Part shown: piece by piece, positions 2,811 through 37,886 of the stretch
Position numbering within the stretch: the stretch's first letter is position 1
How the letters are laid out: every line of letters begins with the position of its first letter
DNA from: Kagunavirus LM08P2
Sequence record: OZ035738.1
Reading direction: 5' to 3' (one strand)
Length of the DNA stretch: 42,999 bases
Notes under the pieces: generated by a model
Seen by the model: the letters and a program-made list of their open reading frames with translations, nothing else
The model's database searches: none
What the model was told of the DNA's origin: nothing
Made by a program: the position numbers and the translations under genes

Positions 2811-3887
2811 ATGCTATTAACTTTAGCGTCACAGGGTTTATCTATGAGCTTACTTACATCCCTAATCAGCCACCAGATATGGCTGCAACGCGCCGCATCC
2901 GGTGAAGTGAAAGACCTCGCGCCGTTCATTCAGGAAATGCGGGACGAAATCAAACGGCAGGTGCTGTTATTCGGTGACGACGGTCGCAGCACCGAGCGGC
3001 TGAATAAACTGTTACGCGACCTCGAAGAAGCACTGGCAGGGCTTACAGGCGACTGGCAAACAAAGCTGACAGAAGACCTTAAGGAACTGGCGGCGTATGA
3101 GGCTGAGTGGAACGTAAAAACGCTGACGGCTAACGTTAACGCGGAATTTGTTACACCTACCGCTGAGCAGGTGTGGGCCGCTGCTGAGTTTCAACCATTA
3201 TCGTTAAGCGACAAGCCCGTCGATTTCACTAAGCTGATGGATGGCTGGGGTGAAACGGAAGTCGCGCGCCTGGTAACCGGCGTTAAGATGGGCTTTGTCC
3301 AAGGCCAGACGACACGGCAGATTGTTAAGAATGTTGTTGGCGCTGGTGGGCTGGCGGACATCTCCGAGCGTAACGCAGCTACGGTAATCCGCACCGCGCT
3401 GTCGCACGTGTCCAACGAAGCACGTAACGAGACGTACCGTCAGAACGACGACATCATCGAGAAGTACGAGTGGGTGTCAACGCTGGACAGCCGTACCAGT
3501 ACGATTTGCAGAGCCAGGGACGGAATGACGTGGGAAATTGGTAAAGGGCCAATGCCGCCAGCCCATCCGAATTGTCGGTCGTGCACGGCTCCGGTAATCA
3601 GTTCAGAGTTCGACTTCCTCGATAAAGGCGCAAAACGGGCGGCTAAGGGTGCAGATGGCGGTACTCAGGTAAACGCAGACACCACTTATTACGAGTTTCT
3701 GAAACAACAACCGGCGTGGTTTCAGGACCAGGCGCTCGGCCCGGTGCGAGGTAAGATTTTCCGTAACAGCGGTATATCGCCGGAAGAGTTTCGCGTAATA
3801 TCTGTAGATGGTTTCGGGAATCCGCTCACGCTTAAGCAGATGGCGGAACTCGATAAACGTGTTGCTGATTATCTGAAAGGGGATTAA
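2811..3887 (+). CDS. Head morphogenesis protein, Mu F / SPP1 gp7-like
   Basis: 358 aa; C-terminal region LDSRTSTICRARDG...HPNCRSC resembles the conserved Mu-F family core; position after portal. No clear SD; start could be ATG at 2844. Confidence 0.55.
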   Translation: MLLTLASQGLSMSLLTSLISHQIWLQRAASGEVKDLAPFIQEMRDEIKRQVLLFGDDGRSTERLNKLLRDLEEALAGLTGDWQTKLTEDLKELAAYEAEWNVKTLTANVNAEFVTPTAEQVWAAAEFQPLSLSDKPVDFTKLMDGWGETEVARLVTGVKMGFVQGQTTRQIVKNVVGAGGLADISERNAATVIRTALSHVSNEARNETYRQNDDIIEKYEWVSTLDSRTSTICRARDGMTWEIGKGPMPPAHPNCRSCTAPVISSEFDFLDKGAKRAAKGADGGTQVNADTTYYEFLKQQPAWFQDQALGPVRGKIFRNSGISPEEFRVISVDGFGNPLTLKQMAELDKRVADYLKGD

Positions 3888-4348
3888 TGATGGGCTTTTT
3901 CAAAGTAACTGATGTACCTTCACGTCGTGTAGTCCAGTACGCCCGAGTGTCTGGCTCTGGCGAGAACGTGGTATTTATTGAAGACGAAAGTGTACTGGGT
4001 GCGCCAGTGGACGATATGCCGTTTGCAGATAAAACCGGTATTGCGTTACCCGCTGCCGGCATGCTTTACGAGATTCCGTATCTGGCGGACGCTGGTGACG
4101 TGTACTTCTCTGTGCAACCGCAGGACGTTGAACTGGCAGACGGCAGCGCGACTCTCACTGTCGAAGTTAAGGCGGGCAAAGCACCACACGCGCTGACCTG
4201 GTACAAAGACGGTAAGGAAGTGGTAAACGCCCCGGAAGAGGCTTTGTCTCTTACGGTTAACGCGGCAGGCGAATACTTCGTTAAAGTTACTGATGCCGAT
4301 GGAGTAGAGGCCGTGAGTAAAGCGGCGAAGGTTACTAAGCCTGAATGA
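3887..4348 (+). CDS. Ig-like domain protein (possible head decoration)
   Basis: 153 aa; C-terminal LTWYKDGKEV...GEYFVKVTDADG pattern typical of bacterial Ig-like domains; TAATG overlap with upstream gene. Confidence 0.45.
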   Translation: MMGFFKVTDVPSRRVVQYARVSGSGENVVFIEDESVLGAPVDDMPFADKTGIALPAAGMLYEIPYLADAGDVYFSVQPQDVELADGSATLTVEVKAGKAPHALTWYKDGKEVVNAPEEALSLTVNAAGEYFVKVTDADGVEAVSKAAKVTKPE

Positions 4349-4350
4349 TA

Positions 4351-4378
4351 AAAGGCCCCATTACGGGGCCTTAGTTTT
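4351..4378. terminator. Bidirectional intrinsic terminator between convergent genes
   Basis: AAGGCCCC-ATTAC-GGGGCCTT hairpin flanked by A-run upstream and T-run downstream, between + gene ending 4348 and - gene ending 4377. Confidence 0.6.
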
Positions 4379-4622
4379 ATCGCACTCTCATAAATAGCTT
4401 ACCTTTGCGCTGTAACAAATCCATGCCAACTGCACCTTCACCAGATTTGTTCGGACGGCGCATTAAACTAAAGTTCCATACTCTAGCTTTTGAAGCATCT
4501 TTCGCATTGCACACCCAAAGTCTGCCGCTTTCTCTTAGGTCAAATAAGTCCGATATACTGAAATTATTAACCGGTATGAACCCGCTAATGAACTCACGTT
4601 CGCAACTAGGTAATTCCTGCAT
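4377..4622 (-). CDS. Hypothetical protein, opposite-strand insert in head module
   Basis: 81-aa ORF on minus strand with strong SD (GAGGAGGG) upstream of ATG at 4622 and its own promoter at 4649-4677. Confidence 0.5.
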   Translation of the reverse strand: MQELPSCEREFISGFIPVNNFSISDLFDLRESGRLWVCNAKDASKARVWNFSLMRRPNKSGEGAVGMDLLQRKGKLFMRVR

Positions 4623-4648
4623 ACACCCTCCTCGTTTCGATGTAATGA

Positions 4649-4677
4649 ATAGTACCCTATTATATTGGTGTGTGCAA
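4649..4677 (-). promoter_or_regulatory. Sigma70-like promoter, family 2 (TTGCAC-N17-TACTAT)
   Basis: Read on minus strand: TTGCACACACCAATATAATAGGGTACTAT; near-identical copies at 13790-13818(-), 36393-36421(+), 37829-37857(+). Confidence 0.5.
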
Positions 4678-4690
4678 ACTATTTATTTAC

Positions 4691-4743
4691 GTATTCCAGT
4701 TATTCCACTCAATTGTAAATGTTGGAATAAACTATTCGAATAG
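4691..4743. promoter_or_regulatory. Cluster of TGGAATA/TATTCCA repeats upstream of promoter at 4744
   Basis: TATTCCA at 4692-4698 and 4701-4707 with inverted partner TGGAATA at 4723-4729; similar TGGAATA pair at 5485-5512. Confidence 0.4.
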
Positions 4744-4772
4744 TTGACTTTTCACTAAAAATGTGCTAAGCT
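4744..4772 (+). promoter_or_regulatory. Promoter TTGACT-N17-TAAGCT (TG-extended), copy 1
   Basis: TTGACTTTTCACTAAAAATGTGCTAAGCT; nearly identical sequence at 36084-36112. Confidence 0.5.
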
Positions 4773-4779
4773 CCACCTG

Positions 4780-4978
4780 AGCTTGTGAAGTATGAACAAG
4801 CGACCGCGGCGCGGGCAGGTAACGGAGCGGGACGTAAGTCCTGAGTGTAGTTACGCTGACGCGTTCGGAAGGGCCATACTCTATTGCTTGTGTAAAAAGT
4901 AACTGGTTTACTGAGATTACGCCGTTTCTATGTTTAAATGATAAGGACTAGCGCCCCGCTTTATGGCGGGGCTTTACT
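4780..4978 (+). ncRNA. Candidate structured noncoding RNA / leader element, copy 1
   Basis: About 110 nt downstream of the promoter is conserved with the copy at 36119-36230; contains hairpins with compensatory differences between copies; no ORF conserved between copies; ends at a GC-rich hairpin plus T-run at 4951-4978. Confidence 0.45.
4951..4978 (+). terminator. Intrinsic terminator
   Basis: GCGCCCCGC-TTTATG-GCGGGGC followed by TTTACTT, immediately upstream of the spanin RBS. Confidence 0.55.
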
Positions 4979-4996
4979 TATCGAGAAAGGAGAAAC

Positions 4997-5383
4997 ATGA
5001 ATCTTAAAGCAACTGTCGTAGCAGGAGCATGTTTCATCATCCTGTTATACACGCACGGCTACTATCAATACCGCAGCGGCTGGAACGGAGGCAGGGCTAA
5101 TCTAGTTTCGCAGCAACAGCAGAAAGCACAGGCTGAGTTAGCGAAGAAAACACAACGGCAGCAGCAGGACGAATCAAAGGCCGCCGCCGCTGACAACGAA
5201 GGCAAGACGAAATCAGAGGTGATTACCCGTGAAGTCGTTAAGTACATTAAAACGCCTGGCCGCAGCGTGTGCACTTTCGACGATGCTCGCGTCCTGCTCA
5301 AGTCCCGCGCCGTCGCAAACGCCAATTCCATCCCCGGATACGACGATGATGCAGCCGCCATGCAAACTGGCCGCGCCAAGTAG
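4997..5383 (+). CDS. i-spanin (Rz-like inner membrane spanin)
   Basis: 128 aa; N-terminal hydrophobic TMD (ATVVAGACFIILLY) then Q/A/K/E-rich predicted coiled coil; overlapped by a lipoprotein ORF in another frame; strong SD AAAGGAGAAA. Confidence 0.55.
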   Translation: MNLKATVVAGACFIILLYTHGYYQYRSGWNGGRANLVSQQQQKAQAELAKKTQRQQQDESKAAAADNEGKTKSEVITREVVKYIKTPGRSVCTFDDARVLLKSRAVANANSIPGYDDDAAAMQTGRAK

Positions 5384-5492
5384 CGATGCCGATGAGGATT
5401 TAGCCATTGACGTTCAGAACACAGAATGTGTACGGCAACTGCGTCTGAAAGTGTTCATGTTGCAGGATTACGTGAGGAATATTCTGGAATAG
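5229..5492 (+). CDS. o-spanin (Rz1-like outer membrane lipoprotein)
   Basis: 87 aa from GTG start with SD GAGGTGA; signal peptide ending in lipobox LASC; proline-rich mature region; begins inside the i-spanin gene in the +1 frame and extends past its stop. Confidence 0.55.
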   Translation: MKSLSTLKRLAAACALSTMLASCSSPAPSQTPIPSPDTTMMQPPCKLAAPSSDADEDLAIDVQNTECVRQLRLKVFMLQDYVRNILE

Positions 5493-5526
5493 TTGCCTTG
5501 CATGTTGGAATAATTTATTCTTGACA
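5475..5526. promoter_or_regulatory. TGGAATA repeat cluster and promoter-like region upstream of scaffold/capsid genes
   Basis: GAATATTC palindrome 5477-5484, TGGAATA at 5485-5491 and 5506-5512, TTGACA at 5521-5526; shares TGTTGGAATAA...TATTC...TTGAC with 4720-4749. Confidence 0.35.
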
Positions 5527-5574
5527 TGTAAATCCGGGTGGCCCGGGTTCCAACGTCCAGGGGACATACTGACT

Positions 5575-6276
5575 ATGAATCGTTTTTTACGTTATCCGTT
5601 CCAGGAAGAAGCTGGGGCAGAAGATAAAGCTGGTGGCGGTGACGCGCCGAAAATGTTCACCGCTGAAGAAGTTCAGGCGCTGATTGAGAAAGAAGTTGCC
5701 GGGCTTAAGGCCAATCAGGAAGCATTGCTGGCGGAGAAGAAAGAAGCCGCTCGTAAAGCAAAAGAGGCCGAAGAAGAACGGCAGCGCGCGCACCAGGAGG
5801 CGTTAAAAGCCGCTGGTAAGATGGACGAGTTCGAAAAGACGATTCGTAGCCAGTATGACCCGGTGTTAGCCGAGAAAGATGGTCGCATCTCCAAAATGGC
5901 AGAGCGTATCCTCGGCAGTGAACGTAAAGCGGTGTTAGGCTCTTTCGCGGGCGACTTTATTACCCCGGAAGCAGTAGACATTCTTGCTCCGTTCGTTAAG
6001 ACTGAGTTCGAAGGCGATGACGTGGTTACTAAGTTTGTTGGTGCGGATGGCAACGTAATCACGACTGACCCGGAACAGTTCCGCAAATACCTGCGTGAAC
6101 ACAAAGCATTTTCGCATTTGATTAAAGCAAATGCAGCTTCCGGCGGCGGGGCTTCCGGTAGCAAAGGCGGCGGGGCCGCACCAGCGTTTAAAGACATGAG
6201 TGAAGCGGAGCGTTTAGCTCTGTATAAATCGAACCCTGCCGAATTTGAACGGCAACTTAAAGCCCTGAGGAAATAA
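5575..6276 (+). CDS. Scaffolding protein (putative)
   Basis: ORF track start 5521 is TTG; first ATG at 5575. Ala/Glu/Lys-rich, predicted coiled coil (EKKEAARKAKEAEEERQRAHQEALKAAGK), immediately upstream of major capsid gene. Confidence 0.5.
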   Translation: MNRFLRYPFQEEAGAEDKAGGGDAPKMFTAEEVQALIEKEVAGLKANQEALLAEKKEAARKAKEAEEERQRAHQEALKAAGKMDEFEKTIRSQYDPVLAEKDGRISKMAERILGSERKAVLGSFAGDFITPEAVDILAPFVKTEFEGDDVVTKFVGADGNVITTDPEQFRKYLREHKAFSHLIKANAASGGGASGSKGGGAAPAFKDMSEAERLALYKSNPAEFERQLKALRK

Positions 6277-6278
6277 TA

Positions 6279-7328
6279 ATGGCAATTACCACTATCGGCG
6301 ATATCGTAACTGGCAACATCCCGGTCCTGGCGTCTTATATGACCGAGGACCCGGTAGAAAAAACCGCGTTCTTTCAGTCAGGTATTTTGACCCCGACTCC
6401 GTACGCTGCCGAGATTGCTCGCGGCCCGTCCAACGTCGCTAACATTCCTTTCTGGAAAGCGATTGATACCTCTATCGAGCCTAACTACTCGAACGACGTA
6501 TACCAGGACATCGCCACCCCGCGTAACGTGCAGACCGGTGAGATGATGGCCCGCGTTGCATACCTGAACGAAGGTTTCGGTCAGGCGGACCTGACTGTCG
6601 AACTGACCAGCCAGAACCCGCTGCAATCTGTGGCTTCTCGCCTGGATAACTTCTGGCAGCGCCAGGCACAACGCCGTCTTATTGCTACCGCGCTCGGTCT
6701 GTACAATGACAACGTAGCCGCTACCGACGCATACCACGAGCAGAACGACATGGTAATCGACGTGTCTGCTACTCTGGGCTTCGATGCGGGCGCGTTCATC
6801 GACGCTACCCAGACTATGGGTGATGCGCTGATTGGCAACGGCGGTGAAGTGCTGGGTGCTATCGCGATGCACAGCTTCGTATATGCGCAGGCCCGTAAGC
6901 AGCAGCTTATTGACTTCATCAAAGACGCTGACAACGACACCATGTTTGCCACCTACCAGGGCTACCGCGTGATTGTTGACGACAGCATGACCGTAGTCGG
7001 TACCGGCCCTAGCCGTAAGTTCATCTCCATCATCTTCGGCAACGGCGCTATCGGTTACGGTGAAGGTAATCCGTCCAACCCGCTGGAATACGAACGTGAA
7101 GCGTCTCGCGGTAACGGCGGCGGCGTAGAAACCCTGTGGACCCGTAAGACCTGGTTGCTGCACCCACTGGGCTACAGCTTCACCAGCGCAGTAATCACCG
7201 GCAATGGCACCGAGACTACACCGCGCTCCGCTTCCTGGCAGGACCTGGCGAACGCCTCCAACTGGAACCGTGTTGTTGAACGTAAGCATGTACCGATTGC
7301 CTTCCTGGTAACTGGTGTCGGGGCTTAA
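6279..7328 (+). CDS. Major capsid protein
   Basis: 349-aa ORF after scaffold gene with SD GAGGAAA; followed by a strong intrinsic terminator, typical of a highly expressed capsid gene. Confidence 0.7.
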   Translation: MAITTIGDIVTGNIPVLASYMTEDPVEKTAFFQSGILTPTPYAAEIARGPSNVANIPFWKAIDTSIEPNYSNDVYQDIATPRNVQTGEMMARVAYLNEGFGQADLTVELTSQNPLQSVASRLDNFWQRQAQRRLIATALGLYNDNVAATDAYHEQNDMVIDVSATLGFDAGAFIDATQTMGDALIGNGGEVLGAIAMHSFVYAQARKQQLIDFIKDADNDTMFATYQGYRVIVDDSMTVVGTGPSRKFISIIFGNGAIGYGEGNPSNPLEYEREASRGNGGGVETLWTRKTWLLHPLGYSFTSAVITGNGTETTPRSASWQDLANASNWNRVVERKHVPIAFLVTGVGA

Positions 7329-7342
7329 GGTTAAGCTATAAT

Positions 7343-7372
7343 CGAGAGGGACTTCGGTCCCTCTTTTCATTT
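7343..7372 (+). terminator. Intrinsic terminator after major capsid gene
   Basis: GAGAGGGAC-TTCG-GTCCCTCTTTTCATTT. Confidence 0.7.
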
Positions 7373-11737: not shown

Positions 11738-11768
11738 CTAAGGCCCCTTTCGGGGCCTTTTTCTTACT
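11738..11768. terminator. Bidirectional intrinsic terminator
   Basis: AAGGCCCC-TTTC-GGGGCCTTTTTCTT with A-rich 5' flank; sits between + major tail gene and - cassette. Confidence 0.7.
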
Positions 11769-13761: not shown

Positions 13762-13789
13762 AATTATTTCCTCAGTAAGTTACAAGTGA

Positions 13790-13818
13790 ATAGTACCCTA
13801 TTATATTGGGGTGTGCAA
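13790..13818 (-). promoter_or_regulatory. Sigma70-like promoter, family 2
   Basis: On minus strand TTGCACACCCCAATATAATAGGGTACTAT; drives the 13761-to-11764 cassette. Confidence 0.5.
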
Positions 13819-13925
13819 GTAGTGTGCTAGAATAAGTTTGCGCCTAGTGTCGCACACGAAAAGCGGGTGGTTCCCGTCTGGCGCGTCAACCTTAACCTGT
13901 AACCTCTTAACCAAAGGATTAAAGA

Positions 13926-23968: not shown

Positions 23969-25389
23969 TTCTTACTCCTTCTCTTCATATAATTAAGTAG
24001 TTCATCCTGTACAGACCTTTTCTCGTCTGTACGCGCGGCGACAACTTCATCAAGAGTATCTCTGGCTATTATTTGATAAATGAATACAGACCGTTTGTAT
24101 CCAGATTGCATCTGCCTTACCGGGCCTATACGCTCGATAACCTGCAAATAATGTTCCAGGTTCCACCCCTGACTCATAAAGGCCATGTGGTGCCCGCCGT
24201 GTTGTAACGACAGTCCGTGGCCCGCGGAGGCTGGGTGTATCAAGAGCATTGGTATTTCACCCCGGTTCCACGCTTCCATCTGCTTATTACCCTTAGCACC
24301 TTTTGCAAACTCCTGTGCCTGCGGGAATCGCTTAAGGATGCGCTCCAGTTCGTGCCTAAACTGATAGGCCACCAGTAACGGCGCGCCCTGTAACTCCTCA
24401 ACAATTGACTCTAGCGCATCCAGTTTCGTGTCGTGCACTTTCTCCCAGTCTTTGGTTGCTTCACCATCGGGCCCCGACACATATACGGCACCGGATGCAA
24501 TCTGCAAACACTTCGAAGTCTTCGCAGCAGCGTTAGCCGCTTCAACTTCCCCGCTCTCCAGTTCCGCGAATAACTTCTCCTCCATATCGATGTACGCCTG
24601 ACGTGCTTTCTTCGGCAGGTCGATTTCAACCGGTACAATAATCGGCGCTTCACAACCGAACCACTCGGCAGCGTCAATCGTGAGACTGATGTCTTTCATC
24701 TTCTGGTGAATCTCAGTATCTGCGCCAGGGCGCGCATGATATTCGCGCGCCATAGCCGATTTGCCTTTCTGTACCGAGTTAAACCAGCGGTCGGTGAATG
24801 CTGTGTACGAGGAACCCAAGCGCTCGCCCGCGTCGATAAACCAGTTCTGCCCCCACAAATCCTTTAGGCCGTTCGGCGACGGCGTACCAGTCAGGTTGAT
24901 AAAACGCTTAACCTTACCGAAAGCAACCTTGCTAAGAGCCTTTGCGCGCTTGCTTCCACCTGAACGGCTGCGGAACGATTTAAGCTTCGTGCTCTCATCG
25001 GCGACAATAACGGTAAAAGGCCAGTCGTCTTTGCCGTAGTAGTCAATCAGCCACTCGATAACTTCGTAGTTGGTGCACACCACGTTAGCATCCGACTCCA
25101 GCGCCGCGATGCGGCGCTTTTCTGAACCGGTCGCATCGACGACACTCAGGCATGGGAATCGCCATTTCTCTTGTTCTGCGGGCCATGTGCCGGACGCGAC
25201 ACGTAATGGGGCTAGGATTAACACGCGGTCGTCGTCGTTAAGCTGACCATTACGGAACAGTCTGTTTAATGCCCACAGTACGCTGCCAGTCTTCCCGGCA
25301 CCCATGCTCGCCCATATGTTACAGCGATGGTGCCGCAACATGAACGAGGTCATGAGCTTCTGGTACTCGCGCCTTTGAAACTTAGACAT
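23965..25389 (-). CDS. SNF2/DEAD-box family helicase
   Basis: Walker A GAGKTGS and DEST (motif II) in VIVADESTKLKS; track start 25422 is GTG; ATG at 25389 has SD GAGG. Confidence 0.7.
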   Translation of the reverse strand: MSKFQRREYQKLMTSFMLRHHRCNIWASMGAGKTGSVLWALNRLFRNGQLNDDDRVLILAPLRVASGTWPAEQEKWRFPCLSVVDATGSEKRRIAALESDANVVCTNYEVIEWLIDYYGKDDWPFTVIVADESTKLKSFRSRSGGSKRAKALSKVAFGKVKRFINLTGTPSPNGLKDLWGQNWFIDAGERLGSSYTAFTDRWFNSVQKGKSAMAREYHARPGADTEIHQKMKDISLTIDAAEWFGCEAPIIVPVEIDLPKKARQAYIDMEEKLFAELESGEVEAANAAAKTSKCLQIASGAVYVSGPDGEATKDWEKVHDTKLDALESIVEELQGAPLLVAYQFRHELERILKRFPQAQEFAKGAKGNKQMEAWNRGEIPMLLIHPASAGHGLSLQHGGHHMAFMSQGWNLEHYLQVIERIGPVRQMQSGYKRSVFIYQIIARDTLDEVVAARTDEKRSVQDELLNYMKRRSKK

Positions 25390-26065
25390 GATTGGCCTCA
25401 TGAACTGCTTTTGCGAAACCACGCGGGGTAAGGCTGCGTATTGTTTTTGTCCTCACCGATTTACCGCCTAATTTATTGTGTTGGTCGGAGTACCCATCAA
25501 CCACGGCGACACATGATTTAACGGGCATCACAAAACCGTTACCCGCCCAAATACATGTCTTCTTAGGGTACGCGTCCCGCGGTTTTATGTATTCGGGGAA
25601 CATTGGGTGCGTGTCGTCTTCGGGTAAATAGCCGCCGTATTCGTACGGATTGAACGAATAGTCAGGCTTGCGCCATAAAGACGAAAGAACGCTAACCGGG
25701 TTCTCAATCATATAAGGTACGTTGTACTTTTTAGCCAGACGCGCAGCCACTTTGCATGTAATCACGGCCTCTACCTGAAAAGTTGGATTCTTCTTCCGCT
25801 TCGTTTCGAAATGCGCTGCGCCGCTAACAGCTAAATCTGTGCACGGAGGGAACGCAAAAATAATATCCGGCGCAACCTCGAAGTCGAATTTATTGTCAAT
25901 CCACGCGTTTATATAGTGGATGTTCTCGTGTTCAACTTTTGCGCCCAATCGCGCGTAGTCGCCGTGGTCGGCACCGTCGTAGTTGAAACAATAGCAAGTA
26001 TGGCCCGCTTCCGCCCACGGTTGGGCCATGAGGCCCGAACCGTCGAACAATGACCAGATAATCAT
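25382..26065 (-). CDS. DNA (cytosine-5)-methyltransferase, compact
   Basis: 227 aa with C5-MTase motifs in canonical order: FDGSG (motif I), PPC (motif IV catalytic Cys), ENP (motif VI). Confidence 0.6.
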   Translation of the reverse strand: MIIWSLFDGSGLMAQPWAEAGHTCYCFNYDGADHGDYARLGAKVEHENIHYINAWIDNKFDFEVAPDIIFAFPPCTDLAVSGAAHFETKRKKNPTFQVEAVITCKVAARLAKKYNVPYMIENPVSVLSSLWRKPDYSFNPYEYGGYLPEDDTHPMFPEYIKPRDAYPKKTCIWAGNGFVMPVKSCVAVVDGYSDQHNKLGGKSVRTKTIRSLTPRGFAKAVHEANHV

Positions 26066-26253
26066 TTCGCCACCAGAACTAACTCTTTACGCCCGAACGC
26101 CGTAACGTTACCGGTTACGTCTTCGATAACCAGTTTACCGTTCGACTCTACGTACACCGTATCAACGGCAACAGGGCGACGGGTCTTAACATTGAAAATC
26201 ATGTCGCCCGGTACGATGTCACGTGCTGGTTTGCGGTCGTATTCGTGTTTCAT
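26062..26253 (-). CDS. Hypothetical protein (63 aa)
   Basis: ORF with ATGA coupling to MTase gene. Confidence 0.4.
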   Translation of the reverse strand: MKHEYDRKPARDIVPGDMIFNVKTRRPVAVDTVYVESNGKLVIEDVTGNVTAFGRKELVLVAK

Positions 26254-26292
26254 TTCTCAATTCCTTATAGTTAAGGCCCCGAAGGGCCTGTA

Positions 26293-26547
26293 TTAGTTAG
26301 ATAATTCGGCTTGAACTTGCTTAATAAGTTCTCCAGCCGTTGTGAAGTCTACGGACAGCCGTTTAGCTACGTCTTCCGCAAGCACTTTGCGGCCAACCGA
26401 CCCGAAACCCAGGATACGGTTTACTTCCGAAACCTTCATATACCATGAGTAATTAACTGATGCCCCTGTGTACTTACAGATTCGAACAGATGAATCGATT
26501 GAACCCATAATCATGGTGTTTACTGACAGTTGAAGTTCGATAGCCAT
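26293..26547 (-). CDS. Hypothetical protein (84 aa)
   Basis: ORF with SD AAGGA downstream of promoter 26582-26610. Confidence 0.4.
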   Translation of the reverse strand: MAIELQLSVNTMIMGSIDSSVRICKYTGASVNYSWYMKVSEVNRILGFGSVGRKVLAEDVAKRLSVDFTTAGELIKQVQAELSN

Positions 26548-26548
26548 T

Positions 26549-26863
26549 TTATAATTCCTTATATTGTTGGGGTATGTGCTTACTATAATAGTCTGCTATT
26601 AGGGTGTCAATCTGTTTTATCGAACCAACGACAAAAACATTCGCGCCACGTTTACGCATCCGCTCGTGCTCGCGTAACTGGTGTGGGTCTGGCTTCGTGC
26701 TTTCATCTTTCTTAACCTCAACGAACCAGATGATGCCGCCGGGGAGGATTACCAACAGGTCGGGCGCTCCGTTTCGGCCCTCATACACTATCTTACGAAC
26801 GAGGCCCCCCAGGGCCTCGAATCGGTCTTTCGCGTATTTCTGTACGCGGCCCTCTTTAGTCAT
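26549..26863 (-). CDS. VRR-NUC domain nuclease
   Basis: PD-(D/E)XK-like core GAPDLLVILPGGIIWFVEVKK; start uncertain (ATG 26863 or TTG 26878). Confidence 0.55.
   Translation of the reverse strand: MTKEGRVQKYAKDRFEALGGLVRKIVYEGRNGAPDLLVILPGGIIWFVEVKKDESTKPDPHQLREHERMRKRGANVFVVGSIKQIDTLIADYYSKHIPQQYKEL
26582..26610 (-). promoter_or_regulatory. Sigma70-like promoter, family 1 (TTGACA-N17-TATAGT)
   Basis: On minus strand TTGACACCCTAATAGCAGACTATTATAGT; lies inside the 3' end of the VRR-NUC gene. Confidence 0.5.
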
Positions 26864-27094
26864 GGGCGTAGAACCCAAGTAAGGAAAGCCCCTCCTAGAA
26901 CGGCAACACCGACAAACTTAAAGAACAGGCCATAACAGAACATCGTGGCTATTCCCGCCCCGAGTAACAGTGCAAGCATGGTTACTATTGTCCAAAATAC
27001 AAACATTGTCATAATACGCACCCCTCACGTTTCGTGTGCTCAATCCCGCAGCGCGGACAGATTCGACAGTCTTCTTCATAGAACCAGTAGATTT

Positions 27095-27226
27095 TCATTC
27101 CAGCACCCACAGATAAATTGCGATGAACATACCTAATACGGCTACAATCATGCCGTATTGGCCCTCGTGACAGTAGACACCGGCGGCAAATCCCGCCAGT
27201 ACTGCGATAATCAGTTTACTTAGCAT
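27095..27226 (-). CDS. Small membrane protein (43 aa)
   Basis: Hand-translated MLSKLIIAVLAGFAAGVYCHEGQYGMIVAVLGMFIAIYLWVLE; SD GAGGTG; overlaps DNA polymerase stop. Confidence 0.35.
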   Translation of the reverse strand: MLSKLIIAVLAGFAAGVYCHEGQYGMIVAVLGMFIAIYLWVLE

Positions 27227-29489
27227 AACGGTACACCTCTTCCCCAGCCCATGTTAACGGGAACCCTTCGGCCCACTCAGGTAATGAGCATAGCAGGTCA
27301 CCCATCTCTTTAACCGTGTACTCTGGCGTGTCTGGCGTTTCGGCAACACATTCGTCATGTACGTGGAGTACAATTGGGTAGCCCGCCGCCTCGACCGTCA
27401 GGAGTCCGTTAACCAGTAAATCACGGCACAACGCCTGGATGATGTTTTCACACAATTTTCCGCCGTGGGTGTACAAAGTTGTCCACTGGCGGGTGGTCTG
27501 ATTTTCACCCTGATACTTAATGCGGACGTTAGTAGTAACGCGCCCATCCTCGTCAGTCTCTTTAGTGACGCTTAAGCCTATGCCAGGGTAGGACATGATG
27601 CGCCCAGACGGCAGTTCCACGCACAACCACCAACCCGGAACCGGATTACCGTGGTTGTCTTTTTCTTTGGTACGCCAGATGCGGATGGCTCTGTCGCCGT
27701 TAAGGCGTACTCGGGCCCCCGCCCAAAACTCTCGTCCCGGATTTCTGATGGCGGCTATCACCGAATCCTTAAGGTCATTCCAGAATTTCACTGTTTCCGG
27801 ATGGGCTTCCCGCCACATGCGCTTAATGGCGTCACAGGTGCGCCAGACTTCTTTAGGCAGCACATAAGAGGCCCGTTCATCTTTTTTACCAGGCTTTGGC
27901 GGGCGTTTAGCCTCCTGAATTCTGGCCCATTCGTAGCCACGGGCGGTAGCCGCCCAAATGTGGTCGGGGAACGTGCCCCGCATTGTCTCTGTCATTTTAA
28001 AGAGGTCCAGCCCGTAAGTTTTAGCCATAGTCATAAAAGCCCCTACGCCCCCCTCGTAGCCGAGGCCGAGTTCGCAACATTTCCCGACCTGACGTAGGTC
28101 CTTACGGGTGGCTTTTAGTTCTACGGGGTCCATGCCAAACATCTTGCCCGCGGTGGCGCAATAAATATCAATCCCTGCGCGGAAGGTCTCAAGCGCGGAT
28201 GTCTCCCCCGCGGTCCAGGCCAACCCGCGCCCTTCTACGTTTGAGTAGTCGGCAACGAGCAACTTATTACCCTTTTCAGGGATGATGCAACTGCGAACAG
28301 TCGAGGCTGTCAGCTTGGATACGTCGAAACGACGGTGCGCCCGACCCTTTAGCAGCAGATTGATGCCGAACGATAGGGGGTTGAGACGACGGTTCCAGTC
28401 TTCGTCGGACTCCCACGGCTGGCGTACAAGTTTCTTCTCCTCGTTAGTCGGGTCATCATGATAGTACCCGCGCGACAGGTTCTGCGGCTGGAACCCTTTA
28501 CCCGCAAATCGTAAAGTGCGCTTTGCCCCACCGTACTGGATGCAACCGCGCCGGCGGCCGTCTTTGGACCGTCCTAGCAGGAGCGGTTTGTATTTTGTCG
28601 ACGCCGTGGAGGCCGCGCCGAGGCGCATCTCAATGATTGTGCGCGCATCGTCAGGTAAGTCGTCGTCCTCTAGCAAACCTTCGAGCGTTGCTTTCTGTGC
28701 ATTATAGATATTGTAGGCCGGTGCCAGCTCCCGAAGGATTGGCAGGAAGTCTTTACCCGTTAGCTTGCCGCCAAATTTAGCCCTGGCCTCGTTTTTTAGC
28801 TCTTGCTTGTGGCGTTCAACTGCTGCTACCGCCGCCTCAGCAAGAGCCGCATCAACAAAGAAGCCTCGGTCGTTGATTAACTGGTCAAGTTCAAGTACAC
28901 GGTCCTCGAAATCGGAGTTACCCCAACGTGGCAGCTTATGGAAGACTTCACGCATCGCTGTGATGTCGCTCACGGCATACTTGATGAACAGGGCCCACTC
29001 GTCAGGGTGAGTTTCTGCGGTGTAGCGGCGGATTTTGTAGTTCTTCGGCGTCGGTTTAGAGAAACGCTTAATCAGCGCCTTGCCGCGTTTATCTTTTGCA
29101 TTGTCGGCGGATACGCCCAGCACTTCGCACAATGCGTCAAGTGACCCCGGCAGCGCGTGACGAAACGCCCAAATCATCGTATCAATGGTGTTGCTTACGG
29201 GAATATCAAAACCCCAGCAGTTCTTCATGATGAGCCTATCGAAAAGTCCACCGTTATGCCACACCATCTTAATGCGACTGTTTGGCTTCACCAGACGGCG
29301 TAACGCGCGGTGTAAATCTCCCGGCATGTCGCTGCCGTCAGTGCAGTCCCATACCTGAACAGGCTCGTCATCAAAAGCATAGGTGCAGATGAGCACTTCG
29401 GTAGTCGGGTGTTCGGCGTAAGCATAGGAGCCGACTTTCTTTAAATCGGCTTCAGAGAATGTTTCAAAGTCTAAGAACAGGTAACTCAT
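27216..29489 (-). CDS. Family A DNA polymerase with 3'-5' exonuclease domain
   Basis: 757 aa; N-terminal DFETFS (Exo I motif); C-terminal HVHDECV resembling Pol A motif C. Confidence 0.85.
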   Translation of the reverse strand: MSYLFLDFETFSEADLKKVGSYAYAEHPTTEVLICTYAFDDEPVQVWDCTDGSDMPGDLHRALRRLVKPNSRIKMVWHNGGLFDRLIMKNCWGFDIPVSNTIDTMIWAFRHALPGSLDALCEVLGVSADNAKDKRGKALIKRFSKPTPKNYKIRRYTAETHPDEWALFIKYAVSDITAMREVFHKLPRWGNSDFEDRVLELDQLINDRGFFVDAALAEAAVAAVERHKQELKNEARAKFGGKLTGKDFLPILRELAPAYNIYNAQKATLEGLLEDDDLPDDARTIIEMRLGAASTASTKYKPLLLGRSKDGRRRGCIQYGGAKRTLRFAGKGFQPQNLSRGYYHDDPTNEEKKLVRQPWESDEDWNRRLNPLSFGINLLLKGRAHRRFDVSKLTASTVRSCIIPEKGNKLLVADYSNVEGRGLAWTAGETSALETFRAGIDIYCATAGKMFGMDPVELKATRKDLRQVGKCCELGLGYEGGVGAFMTMAKTYGLDLFKMTETMRGTFPDHIWAATARGYEWARIQEAKRPPKPGKKDERASYVLPKEVWRTCDAIKRMWREAHPETVKFWNDLKDSVIAAIRNPGREFWAGARVRLNGDRAIRIWRTKEKDNHGNPVPGWWLCVELPSGRIMSYPGIGLSVTKETDEDGRVTTNVRIKYQGENQTTRQWTTLYTHGGKLCENIIQALCRDLLVNGLLTVEAAGYPIVLHVHDECVAETPDTPEYTVKEMGDLLCSLPEWAEGFPLTWAGEEVYRYAK

Positions 29490-29504
29490 TATTTTCGACC
29501 CTTA

Positions 29505-29532
29505 GTAAAAAGGCCCAATGAAGGGCCTTAGT
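29505..29532 (-). terminator. Intrinsic terminator (minus strand)
   Basis: On minus strand AAGGCCC-TTCATT-GGGCCTTTTTACT, downstream of SSB-like gene. Confidence 0.55.
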
Positions 29533-29548
29533 TAAATTGATTCAGATA

Positions 29549-30178
29549 TTAGCGGCGGCGACGTTCGCGGCGCGGTGCTTCATCTTCTTCGTCGTCTTCC
29601 AGGTCGTCGGTGCTCGCTACTACACTGGAGCCGCCGAAGCGTTTACCTTCACCCATATACTTGATGCCGAGGATAGTGGCGCACAGGTTTTTCCAATCTT
29701 TGTGCCACCATAACTCTACAGATACGTTTGCGACACATCCGCTGTATACCTGCTCGCCTTCTATTTCCTTTCCGTCGATGTTGAAATCAGGCTCGGTTTG
29801 TTTTTCACCTTTAGCTGATGTCATAATTACCGGTTGGCGGTTGTTAGTAGCACGGAAATACAAACCTTCTTCAAAATCCTCAATCGGATTGTCACGCATT
29901 GCCAGGTCGCGTACGCAGCATTTATCCGCATGGTGGTCTACGCCGTAGTTGGCCTTCATCCATTTTTCAGCAGCAGCTGACCCGATTGCCTCTGTTACAA
30001 CTTCCAGCGCTGTATCGTAAAGCGCATCAATTTGAGGATGGTCAGGCTGCATAAGAACCGTAACCTGATATTTGCCCTTAATCAGTTTACCGGTTTTCTT
30101 GTCCTCAGAATCAGCAGCACGTTCAAATACGTTAACCCAGGCGGTGTTTACTTTACGCAGATTCAGTTTAATACCCAT
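29549..30178 (-). CDS. Single-stranded DNA-binding protein (phage SSB-like, acidic C-tail)
   Basis: 209 aa ending in acidic tail DDLEDDEEDE then basic RRERRRR; position between exonuclease and polymerase. Confidence 0.5.
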   Translation of the reverse strand: MGIKLNLRKVNTAWVNVFERAADSEDKKTGKLIKGKYQVTVLMQPDHPQIDALYDTALEVVTEAIGSAAAEKWMKANYGVDHHADKCCVRDLAMRDNPIEDFEEGLYFRATNNRQPVIMTSAKGEKQTEPDFNIDGKEIEGEQVYSGCVANVSVELWWHKDWKNLCATILGIKYMGEGKRFGGSSVVASTDDLEDDEEDEAPRRERRRR

Positions 30179-30245
30179 CTTGATTTCTCGCTTTTCAGTT
30201 TATATTTCAAAGTTTACTCCGGGAGCTGCCCGGCCAGTGATTAGA

Positions 30246-30274
30246 ACTATAATAGCTAACTATTCAGGTGTCAA
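30246..30274 (-). promoter_or_regulatory. Sigma70-like promoter, family 1
   Basis: On minus strand TTGACACCTGAATAGTTAGCTATTATAGT upstream of SSB-like gene. Confidence 0.5.
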
Positions 30275-30522
30275 ACCTTCCAGCCAGTTATTTTCTCAAC
30301 TATCTCGATATATTTGCTAGGCCATTTCATGCTGTTTATGAATCGAATCGCCCGTGTCTTCCACGATTTATCACTCAGGATGGCTTCGATGTCGCGTGTT
30401 CGCATTAGGCATATCGTAAGGCACGCTAAGATAAATGTCGGCATCATTAGCGGCAACATAAGAACCCAGAAAATAGTACACGCTACAAATCCGCCAAGCA
30501 CCCTGAACATTTTACGAATCAT
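30271..30522 (-). CDS. Small membrane protein (83 aa)
   Basis: ATG at 30522 with SD GAGGAGG; two hydrophobic helices; track start 30552 is an upstream extension. Confidence 0.45.
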   Translation of the reverse strand: MIRKMFRVLGGFVACTIFWVLMLPLMMPTFILACLTICLMRTRDIEAILSDKSWKTRAIRFINSMKWPSKYIEIVEKITGWKV

Positions 30523-31823
30523 TCTAAATCCTCCTCTGTCACCTGATTCCACTCAGGCCGTTTATCATCTGCCGTTGCGACACAAGGCGCTCCCGGCTTG
30601 CGTGTGATTAGTTTTTCGAGAATAGGCCACGCATCAGTATTTTTGAACGCTGCTTCTGCCTCTTTCGGAGACACAAGAGACGCCTTAAACAGCATTTTCC
30701 GGTCTATTTCATAAAATTCTGCGGCGTCTATTACCTCCTTCACATCCTTCCACGCACGATTACCCGGGCGGCCTTCTACCAGTTTGTACCCCGGCACTTT
30801 CTTACCGGAATGCAAAGCGGCGGCCATCGCTTTCTCAACCTTGTCGATGTGCTGGCGCAACAACGGCAACTTCTCATACTCAACTACGAGTTGCTCCGGC
30901 GTCAGTTCCAGCGCAAAGTCGTCTTCCAGTTCTTCCGCCCGCACCGCGTTAACTGTCTTTGTACGCGCGGCGCACTGTTCGGAGAACCGACACCACTGAC
31001 AACCATCGACCGACGGCCTGAAGTCCGACGCTTTCAGATTCTTCTTGCCACGGAAATAGGCATCAAGAGCTAACAGTGCACGTTTCTGAGCAAACTTAGC
31101 GAACAGTTCCAGGCCTTCAACCGAGATGTCCCACTCTGACGCGCCACCAGCGTACGGCTGGAAGATTACCAGACGAATAACGGTGATGTTATAGCGTCTC
31201 TTGAGCCTGCGATAAACACCGAGAGCGTAAAGCATAAGCTGCTTGTTTTCTTTCGCTTCGACACGATGCCGCCCAGTTTTCAGGTCTCCGATAATTAGCA
31301 TGTGCTCGTCGGTGTTAGCCAGTTCCTGAACGGCAACAAGGTCAGCGGTTCCGAATGTCTCTAAACCATCCTCCTTACCTTCTTCACTCTCAGCAGGTAC
31401 TTTGTATCCCGGATGCAATACTTCAGTAAGATTGACACGCATCTCGGGCTTGGCGTAAGTCGCTACATCAATAATCGCTTTGCAGTAGTCGGTGTACTTG
31501 CGCACCTGCTCAATCATATCCGCCGTAATCAGTACCGCGCCTTTCACCTGGCTGATTAGTGCCTTAATCGGGCCCTTACCCTCATCCAGAACATAGGCCC
31601 CGACTTCACGCTCTAACGGCAACGCAGTTCCGCGGATATAGGCGTTGAGATGTACCTCAGCTATGGTGTGCATAGCCGTACCTGATACCGCGGCTTTACC
31701 CGACGTGTTAGGGATATCTTTCTCACAGACCAGCGATGCACTGCACGTCAGCCACTTTTTAGCCCCCGACGGCGACAGTAAGGCGTGTACATCGTTATTG
31801 CCGCCACGTTCCTTTAAAATCAT
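30519..31823 (-). CDS. PD-(D/E)XK exonuclease, Cas4/RecB-like with C-terminal Cys cluster
   Basis: N-terminal LSPSGAKKWLTC and C-terminal CQWCRFSEQC (Fe-S-type cysteines); likely start ATG 31823 with SD GGGAGA (track start 31838 is GTG). Confidence 0.65.
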   Translation of the reverse strand: MILKERGGNNDVHALLSPSGAKKWLTCSASLVCEKDIPNTSGKAAVSGTAMHTIAEVHLNAYIRGTALPLEREVGAYVLDEGKGPIKALISQVKGAVLITADMIEQVRKYTDYCKAIIDVATYAKPEMRVNLTEVLHPGYKVPAESEEGKEDGLETFGTADLVAVQELANTDEHMLIIGDLKTGRHRVEAKENKQLMLYALGVYRRLKRRYNITVIRLVIFQPYAGGASEWDISVEGLELFAKFAQKRALLALDAYFRGKKNLKASDFRPSVDGCQWCRFSEQCAARTKTVNAVRAEELEDDFALELTPEQLVVEYEKLPLLRQHIDKVEKAMAAALHSGKKVPGYKLVEGRPGNRAWKDVKEVIDAAEFYEIDRKMLFKASLVSPKEAEAAFKNTDAWPILEKLITRKPGAPCVATADDKRPEWNQVTEEDLE

Positions 31824-32867: not shown

Positions 32868-32897
32868 ACTATAATAGCGAACTATTCATGTTGTCAA
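32868..32897 (-). promoter_or_regulatory. Sigma70-like promoter, family 1
   Basis: On minus strand TTGACAACATGAATAGTTCGCTATTATAGT (18-bp spacer). Confidence 0.5.
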
Positions 32898-32961
32898 TGG
32901 GCTTTCCTAAAATAATTAATATGGTACTATTCACATATAAACTGACTAAGGAGTAATTGAC

Positions 32962-33177
32962 ATGCAACCATCTGAACTAGGCATCCGTGTAGAACAACGC
33001 CGTAAAGAACTCGGCATCTCCCAGCGCCGTCTGGCTGTCCTGGCCGGTGTTTCCCAGGGCGCAATTAACCAGCTTGCGCTCGGGGTAACTCAGGACGTCC
33101 GCCCGGCAACGCTGTTTAAACTGGCGGAAGTGCTGGAAGTAGACGCCAAGTGGCTGGCGTTCGGTGAAGGGGCTTAA
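32962..33177 (+). CDS. XRE-family HTH transcriptional regulator (Cro/CI-like)
   Basis: 71 aa; ELGISQRRLAVLAGVSQGAINQL is a canonical XRE helix-turn-helix; strong SD AAGGAG; opposite strand to surrounding operon. Confidence 0.7.
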   Translation: MQPSELGIRVEQRRKELGISQRRLAVLAGVSQGAINQLALGVTQDVRPATLFKLAEVLEVDAKWLAFGEGA

Positions 33178-35520: not shown

Positions 35521-35811
35521 TTATCTATTAGCCAGACATTCCATCAAATGCGCGTACTTACGATAATAATCTACGACAATCTCATCACCGAAATACTGAT
35601 AAACGTACGCTAAGTGGTCAGAGACATCGATGGAAGCCGACATTGTGCTGAGTCTTCGGAGACTAATCAACTGTAATTCTTCTGTAACGCAAAACGGTGA
35701 ATAAGAGTCCAGCTTACAAGAAACGTTAAAGCACAACGCATATTCGCCTTGCACTAAATAAACCATATAAGCACTGTCATTTTCTTTATCGTGGAAAATT
35801 ACACCTTTCAT
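35521..35811 (-). CDS. Hypothetical protein (96 aa)
   Basis: ORF with ATGA coupling to upstream HTH gene. Confidence 0.4.
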   Translation of the reverse strand: MKGVIFHDKENDSAYMVYLVQGEYALCFNVSCKLDSYSPFCVTEELQLISLRRLSTMSASIDVSDHLAYVYQYFGDEIVVDYYRKYAHLMECLANR

Positions 35812-35976
35812 TTCACGTTCTCCTTAATCCACGCCTCAACTTTATTACGGTCAAATGTACCAGGTAAACGGCGACCCATTACTTTAACGCTGCAATCAGG
35901 AAACTTTCCACTCTTAATCCAGTTATTGATTGTCTGGCGGGTGACTCCGATTAATTCTGCAACTTCATTGATAGTC
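35808..35976 (-). CDS. Small HTH DNA-binding protein (AlpA/excisionase-like fold)
   Basis: ATG at 35976 with SD AGGAGAG; MTINEVAELIGVTRQTINNWIKSGKFP is a typical phage HTH; first gene of leftward early operon; track start 36068 is an upstream extension. Confidence 0.55.
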
Positions 35977-36005
35977 ATTTCGCGCTCTCCTGTGTAAGAT
36001 GTATC

Positions 36006-36083: not shown

Positions 36084-36112
36084 TTGACTTTTACTTAAAA
36101 ATATGCTAAGCT
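36084..36112 (+). promoter_or_regulatory. Promoter TTGACT-N17-TAAGCT (TG-extended), copy 2
   Basis: TTGACTTTTACTTAAAAATATGCTAAGCT, nearly identical to 4744-4772. Confidence 0.5.
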
Positions 36113-36118
36113 TCACTG

Positions 36119-36353
36119 AGCTTGTGAGATATCGCAAGCGACCGCGGAGCGGCAGGGAACGCAACGCGTGCCATTAGGCACTTGAGTGTAGTTCCGCTGG
36201 CGCTTTCGGAAGGGCCAAAGTCTATTGTTAATCCCGCCTAAATACCCAAGTCACTGATAATTAAAAGTTTCTATAGTTGCCGTAAGCAAGGTGGAGAGTA
36301 CTTCACTCCGCTGGGGTGGGCTAACGCCCACCCACTGCGTTGCGTACTCTTTT
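36119..36353 (+). ncRNA. Candidate structured noncoding RNA / leader element, copy 2
   Basis: Conserved with 4780-4886 over about 110 nt; no ORF; GC-rich hairpin GGGTGGGC-TAAC-GCCCACCC at 36313-36333 enclosed by GAGAGTAC/GTACTCT and followed by TTTT. Confidence 0.45.
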
Positions 36354-36392: not shown

Positions 36393-36421
36393 TTGCACAC
36401 ACCAACATAATAGGATACTAT
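36393..36421 (+). promoter_or_regulatory. Sigma70-like promoter, family 2
   Basis: TTGCACACACCAACATAATAGGATACTAT upstream of 36456 gene. Confidence 0.5.
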
Positions 36422-36455
36422 TCACTTATAGAAACGAGACAGAGGAGTGAGGGTT

Positions 36456-37828: not shown

Positions 37829-37857
37829 TTGCACACACAGATATAATAGACTACTAT
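37829..37857 (+). promoter_or_regulatory. Sigma70-like promoter, family 2
   Basis: TTGCACACACAGATATAATAGACTACTAT upstream of 37887 gene. Confidence 0.5.
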
Positions 37858-37886
37858 TCAGTTATCGAAACGAGAGGAGAGAGAAG

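Follow-up and report, generated by a model that had tools for sequence, protein, structure and literature searches.

What are the short repeats of TGGAATA/TATTCCA doing ahead of the spanin genes and ahead of the scaffold and major capsid genes of Kagunavirus LM08P2 (OZ035738.1)? The 42,999-bp stretch analysed here (the window) covers nearly all of the genome of this virulent siphophage, which infects Escherichia coli and belongs to Kagunavirus in the Guernseyvirinae. The evidence discussed below suggests that one oligomeric, sequence-specific DNA-binding regulator, most probably encoded by the phage, uses the repeats as operator half-sites, a reading to which we give a probability of about 0.58.

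Two clusters of one word

The initial annotation reported five heptamers, and all five are present, at 4692-4698 (-), 4701-4707 (-) and 4723-4729 (+) (site 1) and at 5485-5491 (+) and 5506-5512 (+) (site 2). A genome-wide motif scan finds the total only mildly raised: 9 copies were counted, the expectation is 4.21 +/- 2.08, and 3 of 100 shuffles gave 9 or more. The four heptamers outside both clusters (7084, 19346, 33196 and 42125) are at chance level. It is the clustering of the heptamers, not their total count, that is non-random. Of 300 genomes simulated from a first-order Markov model, none packed three copies into 40 bp and a single one showed two separate clusters. Shuffling the AT-rich segments of the two sites (4686-4743 and 5476-5521) at their local composition never reproduced the five GAATA/TATTC pentamers observed in each (0 of 5000 shuffles apiece).

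The pentamers are also paired. Pairs of GAATA/TATTC within 10 bp of each other are found nowhere in the genome besides the two sites, and GAATA-N(0-6)-TATTC has exactly two occurrences in 43 kb (4725 and 5508), with a gap of three bases in both. In Jerseyvirus Ent3, close GAATA/TATTC pairs likewise occur solely at the two orthologous regions. The longer 11-mer that had been proposed as the shared motif, TGTTGGAATAA, does have exactly two copies, but a repeat of that length in 43 kb is not significant alone, and its TGTT part is not conserved in relatives outside Kagunavirus. The motif is restricted to two loci and is not a genome-wide late-promoter motif; the region upstream of the tail genes (13762-13925) lacks it. 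The putative half-site would have the core GAATA/TATTC and the full form GGAATA/TATTCC, arranged in pairs 8-9 bp apart that may be direct or inverted.

Two predicted promoters carry the repeats

Both sites lie at predicted rightward promoters of the sigma-70 type in the head and lysis region, P4744 and P5493. The features of the two sites are as follows.

4692-4707, + strand: left half-site pair TATTCC-AGT-TATTCC(A), repeated directly every 9 bp, at about -87 to -72 of P4744
4714-4720, + strand: block TGTAAAT between the pairs, with minor-allele counts of 2, 0, 0, 0, 0, 0 and 1 of 43 along its columns
4723-4737, + strand: right pair (T)GGAATA-AAC-TATTC, an inverted repeat centred about -48 of P4744
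4731-4744: perfect palindrome ACTATTCGAATAGT adjoining the -35, in the Kagunavirus type only
4744-4772, + strand: P4744, with -35 TTGACT, a 17-bp spacer and extended -10 TGcTAAGCT; predicted start at about 4779
5485-5492, + strand: TGGAATAG, adjoining the -35 of the scaffold promoter (-43 to -36) and overlapping the o-spanin stop codon TAG
5493-5521, + strand: P5493, promoter of the scaffold and major capsid genes, with -35 TTGCCT, a 17-bp spacer and -10 TATTCT; predicted start at about 5528
5506-5520, + strand: (T)GGAATA-ATT-TATTC pair within P5493, with GGAATA in the spacer (-21 to -16) and TATTC forming the first five bases of the -10
5522-5527, + strand: TTGACA, the -35 proposed earlier; no promoter element
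5534-5546, + strand: hairpin CCGGG-NGG-CCCGG, at about +7 to +19 of the predicted scaffold mRNA

The two TTGAC elements that the initial annotation took for -35 hexamers fared differently. TTGACT at 4744-4749 is credible, with hexamers, a 17-bp spacing and conservation in relatives that are those of a sigma-70 promoter. Its jersey-type counterpart is TAGACT-17-TGtTACGCT at the same place, and P4744 is annotated as a predicted host promoter in fBC-Eco01. TTGACA at 5522-5527, on the other hand, reads TTGTTA in all jersey-type sequences, and the hexamer 17 bp downstream of it is CGGGTT, which lies inside the hairpin. A simple promoter scan of 3800-6500 at a threshold of 9/12 returned no promoter, P4744 and P5493 each scoring 8/12, so both assignments rest on conservation.

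With the promoters placed in this way, the shared alignment of TGTTGGAATAA, TATTC and TTGAC dissolves. There is no common architecture: the motif is centred at about -48 at P4744 and occupies -21 to -8 at P5493. The whole site 1 array spans -87 to -42 of P4744. Promoters built from the motif itself at site 1 (TATTCG as a -10, or a leftward TACAAT -10 at 4712-4717), as well as sigma-54 and RpoE/ECF-like readings of it, were rejected for want of consistent partner elements or conservation.

Half-sites are conserved while linkers vary

For site 1, 43 distinct orthologous sequences from IMG/VR contigs were compared. These represent three diverged lineages, the Kagunavirus type and two others, called L011 (81% identity) and jersey (about 76%). 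Conservation is concentrated in the blocks TATTCC-N3-TATTCC, TGTAAAT and GGAATA-N3(4)-TATTC. The left pair, which comprises the first two reported heptamers, is near-invariant between variable flanks, and the right pair has the linker CTT in the jersey type (GGAATA-CTT-TATTC) and AAAC in L011 (GGAATA-AAAC-TATTC). None of the 23 half-site columns deviates in more than three of the 43 sequences, whereas among the 28 other columns from the array to the -35 only 8 stay within this limit. The difference gives P values of 4e-8 (Fisher) and 9e-8 (Mann-Whitney), which are generous, as the 43 sequences are related and their independence is overstated. The sites themselves were defined from repetition within the genome, independently of this column test.

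The palindrome ACTATTCGAATAGT is less widely kept, its GAATAG arm being AAAAAG in the jersey type and TAATGG in L011. TGTAAAT has a second copy at 5527-5533, just downstream of the -10 of the scaffold promoter, and is not enriched genome-wide (7 copies against 5.9 expected). In relatives that lack the small leftward gene upstream (4377-4622), homology starts exactly at the first TATTCC (4692), sometimes after the T-run of a terminator. The array therefore goes with the rightward promoter. Site 1 is probably untranscribed, with the upstream terminator before it and the predicted P4744 start after it.

For site 2, 54 distinct sequences upstream of the scaffold gene were compared, with scaffold identity down to 56%. 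Conserved across lineages are TTGCCT (5493-5498), the 17-bp spacer and TATTCT (5516-5521), as in a sigma-70 promoter; variants include TTGCAT-17-TATATT (L061), TTGCAT-17-TATTCT (L053) and TTGCCC-17-TATATT (Serratia phage Otaku). Since this hexamer pair is kept where the upstream gene is divergent, the promoter must lie in the short gap before the scaffold gene. The string GGAATAG-TTGCCT-N8-GGAATAATTTATTC is kept in Kagunavirus, Jerseyvirus and Cornellvirus-like genomes and, for the same reason, coding cannot explain its conservation. The 8 bp between the -35 and GGAATA vary between lineages while GGAATAATT is fixed, which is unusual in a promoter spacer. In L053, a direct repeat TATTC-TTT-TATTC replaces GGAATA-N3-TATTC in the same register. 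As this form matches the direct repeat of site 1, one element seems to exist in a direct and an inverted variant. In addition, GGAATA(G/A) is retained at site 2 in Cornellvirus-like relatives that have no spanin gene upstream.

Taken by genus, the half-sites of site 1 are conserved block-wise in Kagunavirus and Jerseyvirus, and those of site 2 also in Cornellvirus. At each promoter they are fixed relative to the -35 and -10 hexamers. The word is thus repeated and symmetric, clustered at promoters and fixed in position while its linkers are free, as would be expected of a transcription-factor operator.

The hairpin at 5534-5546 is invariant in all relatives down to 56% scaffold identity. Its lower stem covaries, with pairings of AATCCGGG/CCCGGATT, ACACCGGG/CCCGGTGT, AGCCGGG/CCCGGCT and GACGGG/CCCGTC. 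It may be an mRNA stabiliser or a translational operator; P22 scaffold autoregulation offers a comparison for the latter.

An array-free paralogue

P4744 heads a promoter-RNA cassette that has a second copy in the early region, which serves as an internal control.

36084-36235, + strand: paralogous promoter-RNA cassette in the early region, without the repeats

The two cassettes (4744-4975 and 36084-36235) are 79.6% identical over 147 bp. Both hexamers of the paralogous promoter (36084-36112) are identical to those of P4744, and homology begins exactly at the -35. Among the relatives compared, the array is present on all head-region copies of the cassette and on no early-region copies, even where both copies share an identical RNA 5' sequence up to ACCGCGG. 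Because the core at 36084 has the same hexamers without an array, the P4744 core is presumably active unaided. The proposal that the repeats are functional DNA elements common to two promoters is supported by their clustering, by the selective conservation of the half-sites and by their absence from the paralogue.

A separate observation concerns the recent history of the cassette. The segment 4692-5000 is 96-99% identical in 65 Salmonella phages (96.9% in S106, for example), and the adjoining spanin and scaffold DNA (5300-5700) of the same phages is only about 82% identical. As the cassette is far more identical than the DNA next to it, a recent horizontal exchange between Kagunavirus and Jerseyvirus is indicated.

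Candidate regulator proteins

Pfam and PHROGs scans of about 30 small open reading frames (ORFs) detected only three recognisable DNA-binding proteins.

32962-33177: XRE/HTH_3 protein
35808-35990: HTH_17 excisionase-like protein
41831-42067: NinH-like protein

Five complete genomes were compared: the window, Jerseyvirus Ent3, Cornellvirus Shemara, Klebsiella phage VLCpiS11a and Serratia phage Otaku. The GGAATA word is missing at both regions in VLCpiS11a and Otaku. The former has another heptamer, ACTCGCAA/TTGCGAGT, in 14 copies against 4.9 expected, of which six precede the spanin gene and seven fall in the early control region (the clusters are at 35684-35899 and 5036-5280); one instance in this phage is a perfect 20-bp palindrome, ACTCGCAAAATTTTGCGAGT.

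The genes for the NinH-like protein and for a DUF2737 protein, together with a 57-aa ORF, are carried by all three genomes with repeats and by neither genome without them. They are weak leads to the regulator. Lambda NinH is a Fis-like dimer that prefers G-N13-C (PMC7166090). The 15-bp signature of Fis and NinH was not found at either pair, which reads G-N13-G at 4724-4738 and G-N13-T at 5507-5521, although an AT-rich centre is present. Homologues of the HTH_17 protein were found only in kagunavirus-type contigs.

A probable shared regulator at two promoters

One binding factor is the economical reading, because the same word is conserved at two promoters. A phage-encoded factor is favoured because VLCpiS11a, a distant relative, has a different repeated word upstream of its spanin gene. 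At P4744, such a regulator would bind two pairs upstream of the core (-87 to -42), and in kagunaviruses an extra GAATAG would carry the array up to the -35. At P5493, it would bind one half-site adjoining the -35 and one pair filling the spacer and the -10. The activity of both promoters would thereby depend on how much regulator is present, and a gate of this kind might be relieved as genomes replicate.

As to the direction of control, repression can be proposed only tentatively, and activation by the same regulator is a somewhat more doubtful choice. The slight lean towards a gate or repressor comes from half-sites that abut or overlap parts of the core promoters. The paralogous core at 36084, which has no array, also suggests that P4744 needs no activator.

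Several points weigh against a single phage-encoded regulator, in addition to the relatedness of the site 1 sequences mentioned above. The array takes different positions at P4744 and P5493, so that one simple mode of action does not fit both, and Cornellvirus Shemara keeps the repeats solely at the scaffold promoter. Conservation at site 2 is partly confounded, as 5485-5492 is also the o-spanin C-terminus and stop codon and TATTC is also the -10. The candidate proteins are no easy match either. The HTH_17 gene is absent from Shemara, which keeps the site 2 repeats, and also from VLCpiS11a and Otaku. The XRE protein is encoded in all five genomes at only 40-50% identity, though the sites are invariant. 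The co-occurrence of the NinH-like, DUF2737 and 57-aa ORF genes with the repeats comes from five genomes and from a block that is inherited together. Finally, literature searches turned up no data on binding, expression or transcription starts anywhere in the Guernseyvirinae.

Of the other explanations, the best surviving is the model of the initial annotation, in which a phage-encoded late activator recruits host RNA polymerase to both promoters. TP901-1 Alt, Mu Mor/C and phi29 p4 are activators that work on upstream repeat arrays, and the proposed arrangement resembles theirs. The array of P4744, at -87 to -42, lies in the usual territory of an activator, and GGAATAG at -42 to -36 of P5493 has a class-II-like position. 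Both cores are sub-consensus, the P4744 -10 (TAAGCT) being rescued only by its TG and P5493 matching 4 of 6 bases in each hexamer, and the downstream genes are structural or lytic. A class I/II position fits the P4744 array and GGAATAG at P5493, but not the pair in the spacer and -10 of P5493. This GGAATA-N3-TATTC pair occupies -21 to -8, and an activator bound there would clash with sigma region 2. Furthermore, the 36084 paralogue has the same hexamers and presumably an unaided core, the tail-gene promoter region lacks the motif, and the scans of small ORFs returned no Mor/C, Ogr/Delta, Alt or sigma-like protein. On balance, the activator model is unlikely but not far-fetched.

It is less probable again that no dedicated regulator is involved, and that the repeats reflect AT-rich composition, the -10, o-spanin coding and the shared ancestry of a duplicated fragment, or a host nucleoid protein. 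Some of the observations are indeed accounted for in this way: the TATTC at 5516-5520 belongs to the -10, 5485-5492 is coding, relatives outside Kagunavirus do not keep the TGTT of the shared 11-mer, and the heptamer count outside the clusters is that expected by chance. Composition, however, never yields the observed density in local shuffles, and site 1, which is probably untranscribed, is conserved in blocks with variable linkers. Coding is likewise at odds with the retention of GGAATA(G/A) at site 2 where there is no upstream spanin gene. As for host factors, the consensus sequences of sigma-54, RpoE/ECF, IHF, ArgR, Fis (G-N13-C) and RcsAB were unmatched by inspection, and distant relatives on related enterobacteria lack the word, one of them having a different word before its spanin gene. 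Further consensus sequences (CpxR, NarL, DnaA, TyrR and OxyR) were also compared by inspection, and none fitted.

The weakest alternative is antiterminator loading of the Q/AlpA type, in which GGAATA in the P5493 spacer would load a factor that then travels with RNA polymerase past the terminators at 7344-7365 and 11740-11759. AlpA and Q binding elements lie between the -35 and the -10 (PMC9371919), as does the conserved 6-bp element of P5493, and several terminators interrupt the rightward structural operon. Yet this is very improbable, given that there is no -10-like, sigma-dependent pause element (A2, T6) within about +1 to +10 (the segment is TGACATGTAAATCC, and TGTTACAGAAAC in jerseyviruses), that the P4744 element lies upstream of the -35 and not between the hexamers, and that no Q/AlpA-like protein appeared in the Pfam and PHROGs scans of small ORFs, where the HTH_17 protein matched Phage_AlpA only at E=0.022, is 60 aa long without an N-terminal ring segment and is absent from Shemara.

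A second repeated element, the class B box

Kagunavirus genome papers list seven 'phage promoters' predicted by PHIRE, with the consensus tgAATAGTa-ccTATTat-T (PMC9825357, PMC7203180). The corresponding element in the window, here called the class B box (CTTGCACACACCAATATAATAGGGTACTATTCA), is 32 bp long, with a dyad AATAG-N4-CTATT, a perfect TATAAT and no -35 at 17 bp. Seven are present.

4646-4677, - strand: class B box, 15 bp left of site 1
13787-13818, - strand: class B box
30240-30266, + strand: class B box
32870-32889, + strand: class B box
32917-32933, + strand: class B box
36393-36424, + strand: class B box
37829-37860, + strand: class B box

The PHIRE box of fBC-Eco01 (PMC9825357) resembles the GGAATA sites in that both contain the word GAATAG(T), and of the 12 copies of GAATAGT in the window, 10 fall within promoter regions, among them the copies at 4738 and 5487. 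The likeness ends there. The class B box differs in half-site spacing, dyad and position, with only GAATAG in common, and it is confined to Kagunavirus and Jerseyvirus, where it tracks the HTH_17 gene (in the window and Ent3), whereas GGAATA pairs are also present in Cornellvirus.

Other observations concern the box itself. It was published as a PHIRE 'phage RNA polymerase promoter', and no phage RNA polymerase is annotated. Two of the boxes precede the XRE gene. Near-consensus leftward promoters at 30246-30274 (-) and 32868-32897 (-), of the form TTGACA-17/18-TATAGT, overlap two class B boxes. Because these boxes occupy the spacer and -10 of opposite-strand promoters of replication genes, the arrangement is operator-like. 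The sole candidate rightward promoter for the tail genes, GTTACA-17-TATATT at 13779-13807 (+), overlaps the class B box of the leftward promoter that shares its gap, where no GGAATA pair is present.

A predicted structured RNA downstream of P4744

The initial annotation took the regulator to control the spanin/scaffold/capsid region. In detail this was not upheld at P4744, whose immediate product is predicted to be a terminated structured RNA rather than spanin mRNA.

4779-4975, + strand: structured non-coding RNA or leader of about 195 nt, ending in a terminator-like hairpin (4953-4972)

Between this terminal hairpin and the i-spanin ATG (4997) there are 25 nt. A hairpin forms the 5' part of the RNA, and a long closing helix, CCG.GGNGCG/CGCN'UUCGG, shows three types of base pair at one of its positions. 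The sequence of its apical hairpin is wholly different between variants and retains its pairing, and the long hairpin carries CGUAAG-type loops. Seven divergent variants share one common fold with covarying helices. No Rfam family was found, either with the whole window at the gathering threshold or with 4740-5000 at E up to 10. A 36-aa ORF annotated at 4792-4902 (Bas70_0007) was set aside, as its ATG is missing in the paralogue, L011 and the jersey type.

The cassette was found only in Guernseyvirinae-like contigs, with diverged versions in Shemara and Otaku, and no similarity to it was found in E. coli genomes. A pattern search of bacterial genomes gave 119 matches, 117 of which lacked the extension of the closing helix; they came mostly from GC-rich genomes and were attributed to chance.

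The RNA could be a put-like antitermination RNA, a riboswitch-like leader or a small RNA. HK022 put consists of two stem-loops just after a promoter, has two genomic copies upstream of terminators and acts in cis on RNA polymerase. The likeness of the leader to put is one of architecture: it combines a 5' hairpin with a long covarying hairpin, two copies and a downstream terminator. It is a long shot, but the GGAATA array might be the input of a new late switch of the Guernseyvirinae, in which a phage protein would gate the promoter and a two-hairpin RNA of about 110 nt would control termination. A cis-acting RNA, put-like or riboswitch-like, would then set the passage of RNA polymerase through the 4953 terminator and later ones into the lysis, head and tail genes. 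The promoter-RNA cassette is a more unusual object than the repeats, and if the RNA controls termination, this would be a more important result than the operator array.

Gene context

The 2 kb around both sites (4300-6300) share 95-99% identity with many Escherichia phages and with Raoultella phage RP180, and about 80-90% with some 300 Salmonella jerseyviruses. Gene order was read from annotated relatives.

upstream of 3887: head morphogenesis gene
3887-4348: Hoc-like gene
4352-4372: bidirectional terminator
4377-4622, - strand: small orphan gene with a strong Shine-Dalgarno sequence, GAGGAGGG
between the orphan gene and i-spanin: non-coding stretch of 374 bp
4997-5383: i-spanin gene
5349-5492: o-spanin gene, embedded in the i-spanin region, with its stop codon TAG at 5490-5492
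5575-6276: scaffold gene
6279-7328: major capsid gene

The orphan gene encodes 81 aa and is absent from most relatives; its product had no match in Pfam or PHROG. The slot between the Hoc-like gene and the promoter-RNA cassette is a mosaic hot spot with at least three left junctions (4627, 4646 and 4692). A plus-strand ORF at 4390/4405-4743 (ORF6 in RP180) would make site 1 coding. It was rejected as probably spurious, because the minus-strand ORF at 4377-4622 has the strong Shine-Dalgarno sequence and because in many relatives homology begins only at 4692, right after a terminator.

Intrinsic terminators interrupt the rightward structural operon at 4352, 4953, 7344 and 11740. The bidirectional ones at 4352-4372 and 11740-11759 have nearly the same stem, AAGGCCCC...GGGGCCTT, and each stands at a junction of the rightward structural block with a leftward gene or cluster. 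Elsewhere, in the 25318-31475 region of Jerseyvirus Ent3, the helicase and DNA polymerase are annotated with inteins, one of which has a LAGLIDADG homing endonuclease. The orthologues in the window align only partly to these proteins, consistent with intein-free alleles.

Known systems and significance

Operator arrays in divergent early/late promoter regions are found in phi29, with its p4 sites, and at lambda OR, with CI and Cro. As in these systems, there are several short repeated sites, some overlapping a core promoter and some upstream, so that one protein could act differently at each promoter, and site 1 lies between the box of a leftward promoter (4646-4677) and the rightward P4744. 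Unlike the fixed dyads of CI and Cro, the half-sites here are both direct and inverted at the same 8-9 bp spacing. Unlike the divergent arrays of phi29 and lambda, the array is kept in jersey-type phages without the leftward promoter.

Small regulators that accept both direct and inverted repeats include omega of pSM19035 with its heptads, P2 Cox with its boxes, and the ribbon-helix-helix proteins MetJ and Arc. The sites resemble theirs in grammar only, with words of 5-7 bp that recur at intervals of up to about one helical turn, may face either way and overlap promoters. In contrast to these systems, no ribbon-helix-helix or Cox-like protein was detected in the window; the match of Phage_Cox to the HTH_17 protein (E=0.018) was below the cut-off.

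Literature searches on transcription in Kagunavirus, Jerseyvirus or Guernseyvirinae and on TGGAATA found only the in-silico PHIRE predictions. Neither the GGAATA/TATTCC array nor the scaffold promoter nor the structured RNA was described in the searched literature, which also gave no transcription starts for the subfamily. The repeats are most likely a familiar kind of element, operator sites at phage promoters, in a poorly studied group of phages.

In summary, the Guernseyvirinae (Kagunavirus, Jerseyvirus and Cornellvirus) are among the most often isolated phages of Escherichia and Salmonella and are widely proposed for therapy and biocontrol. The analysis provides testable coordinates for two promoters of the structural region, an operator word, an array-free paralogue as a negative control and a shortlist of regulators. 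For engineering Guernseyvirinae phages, the scaffold/capsid promoter and its operator may prove to be useful parts.

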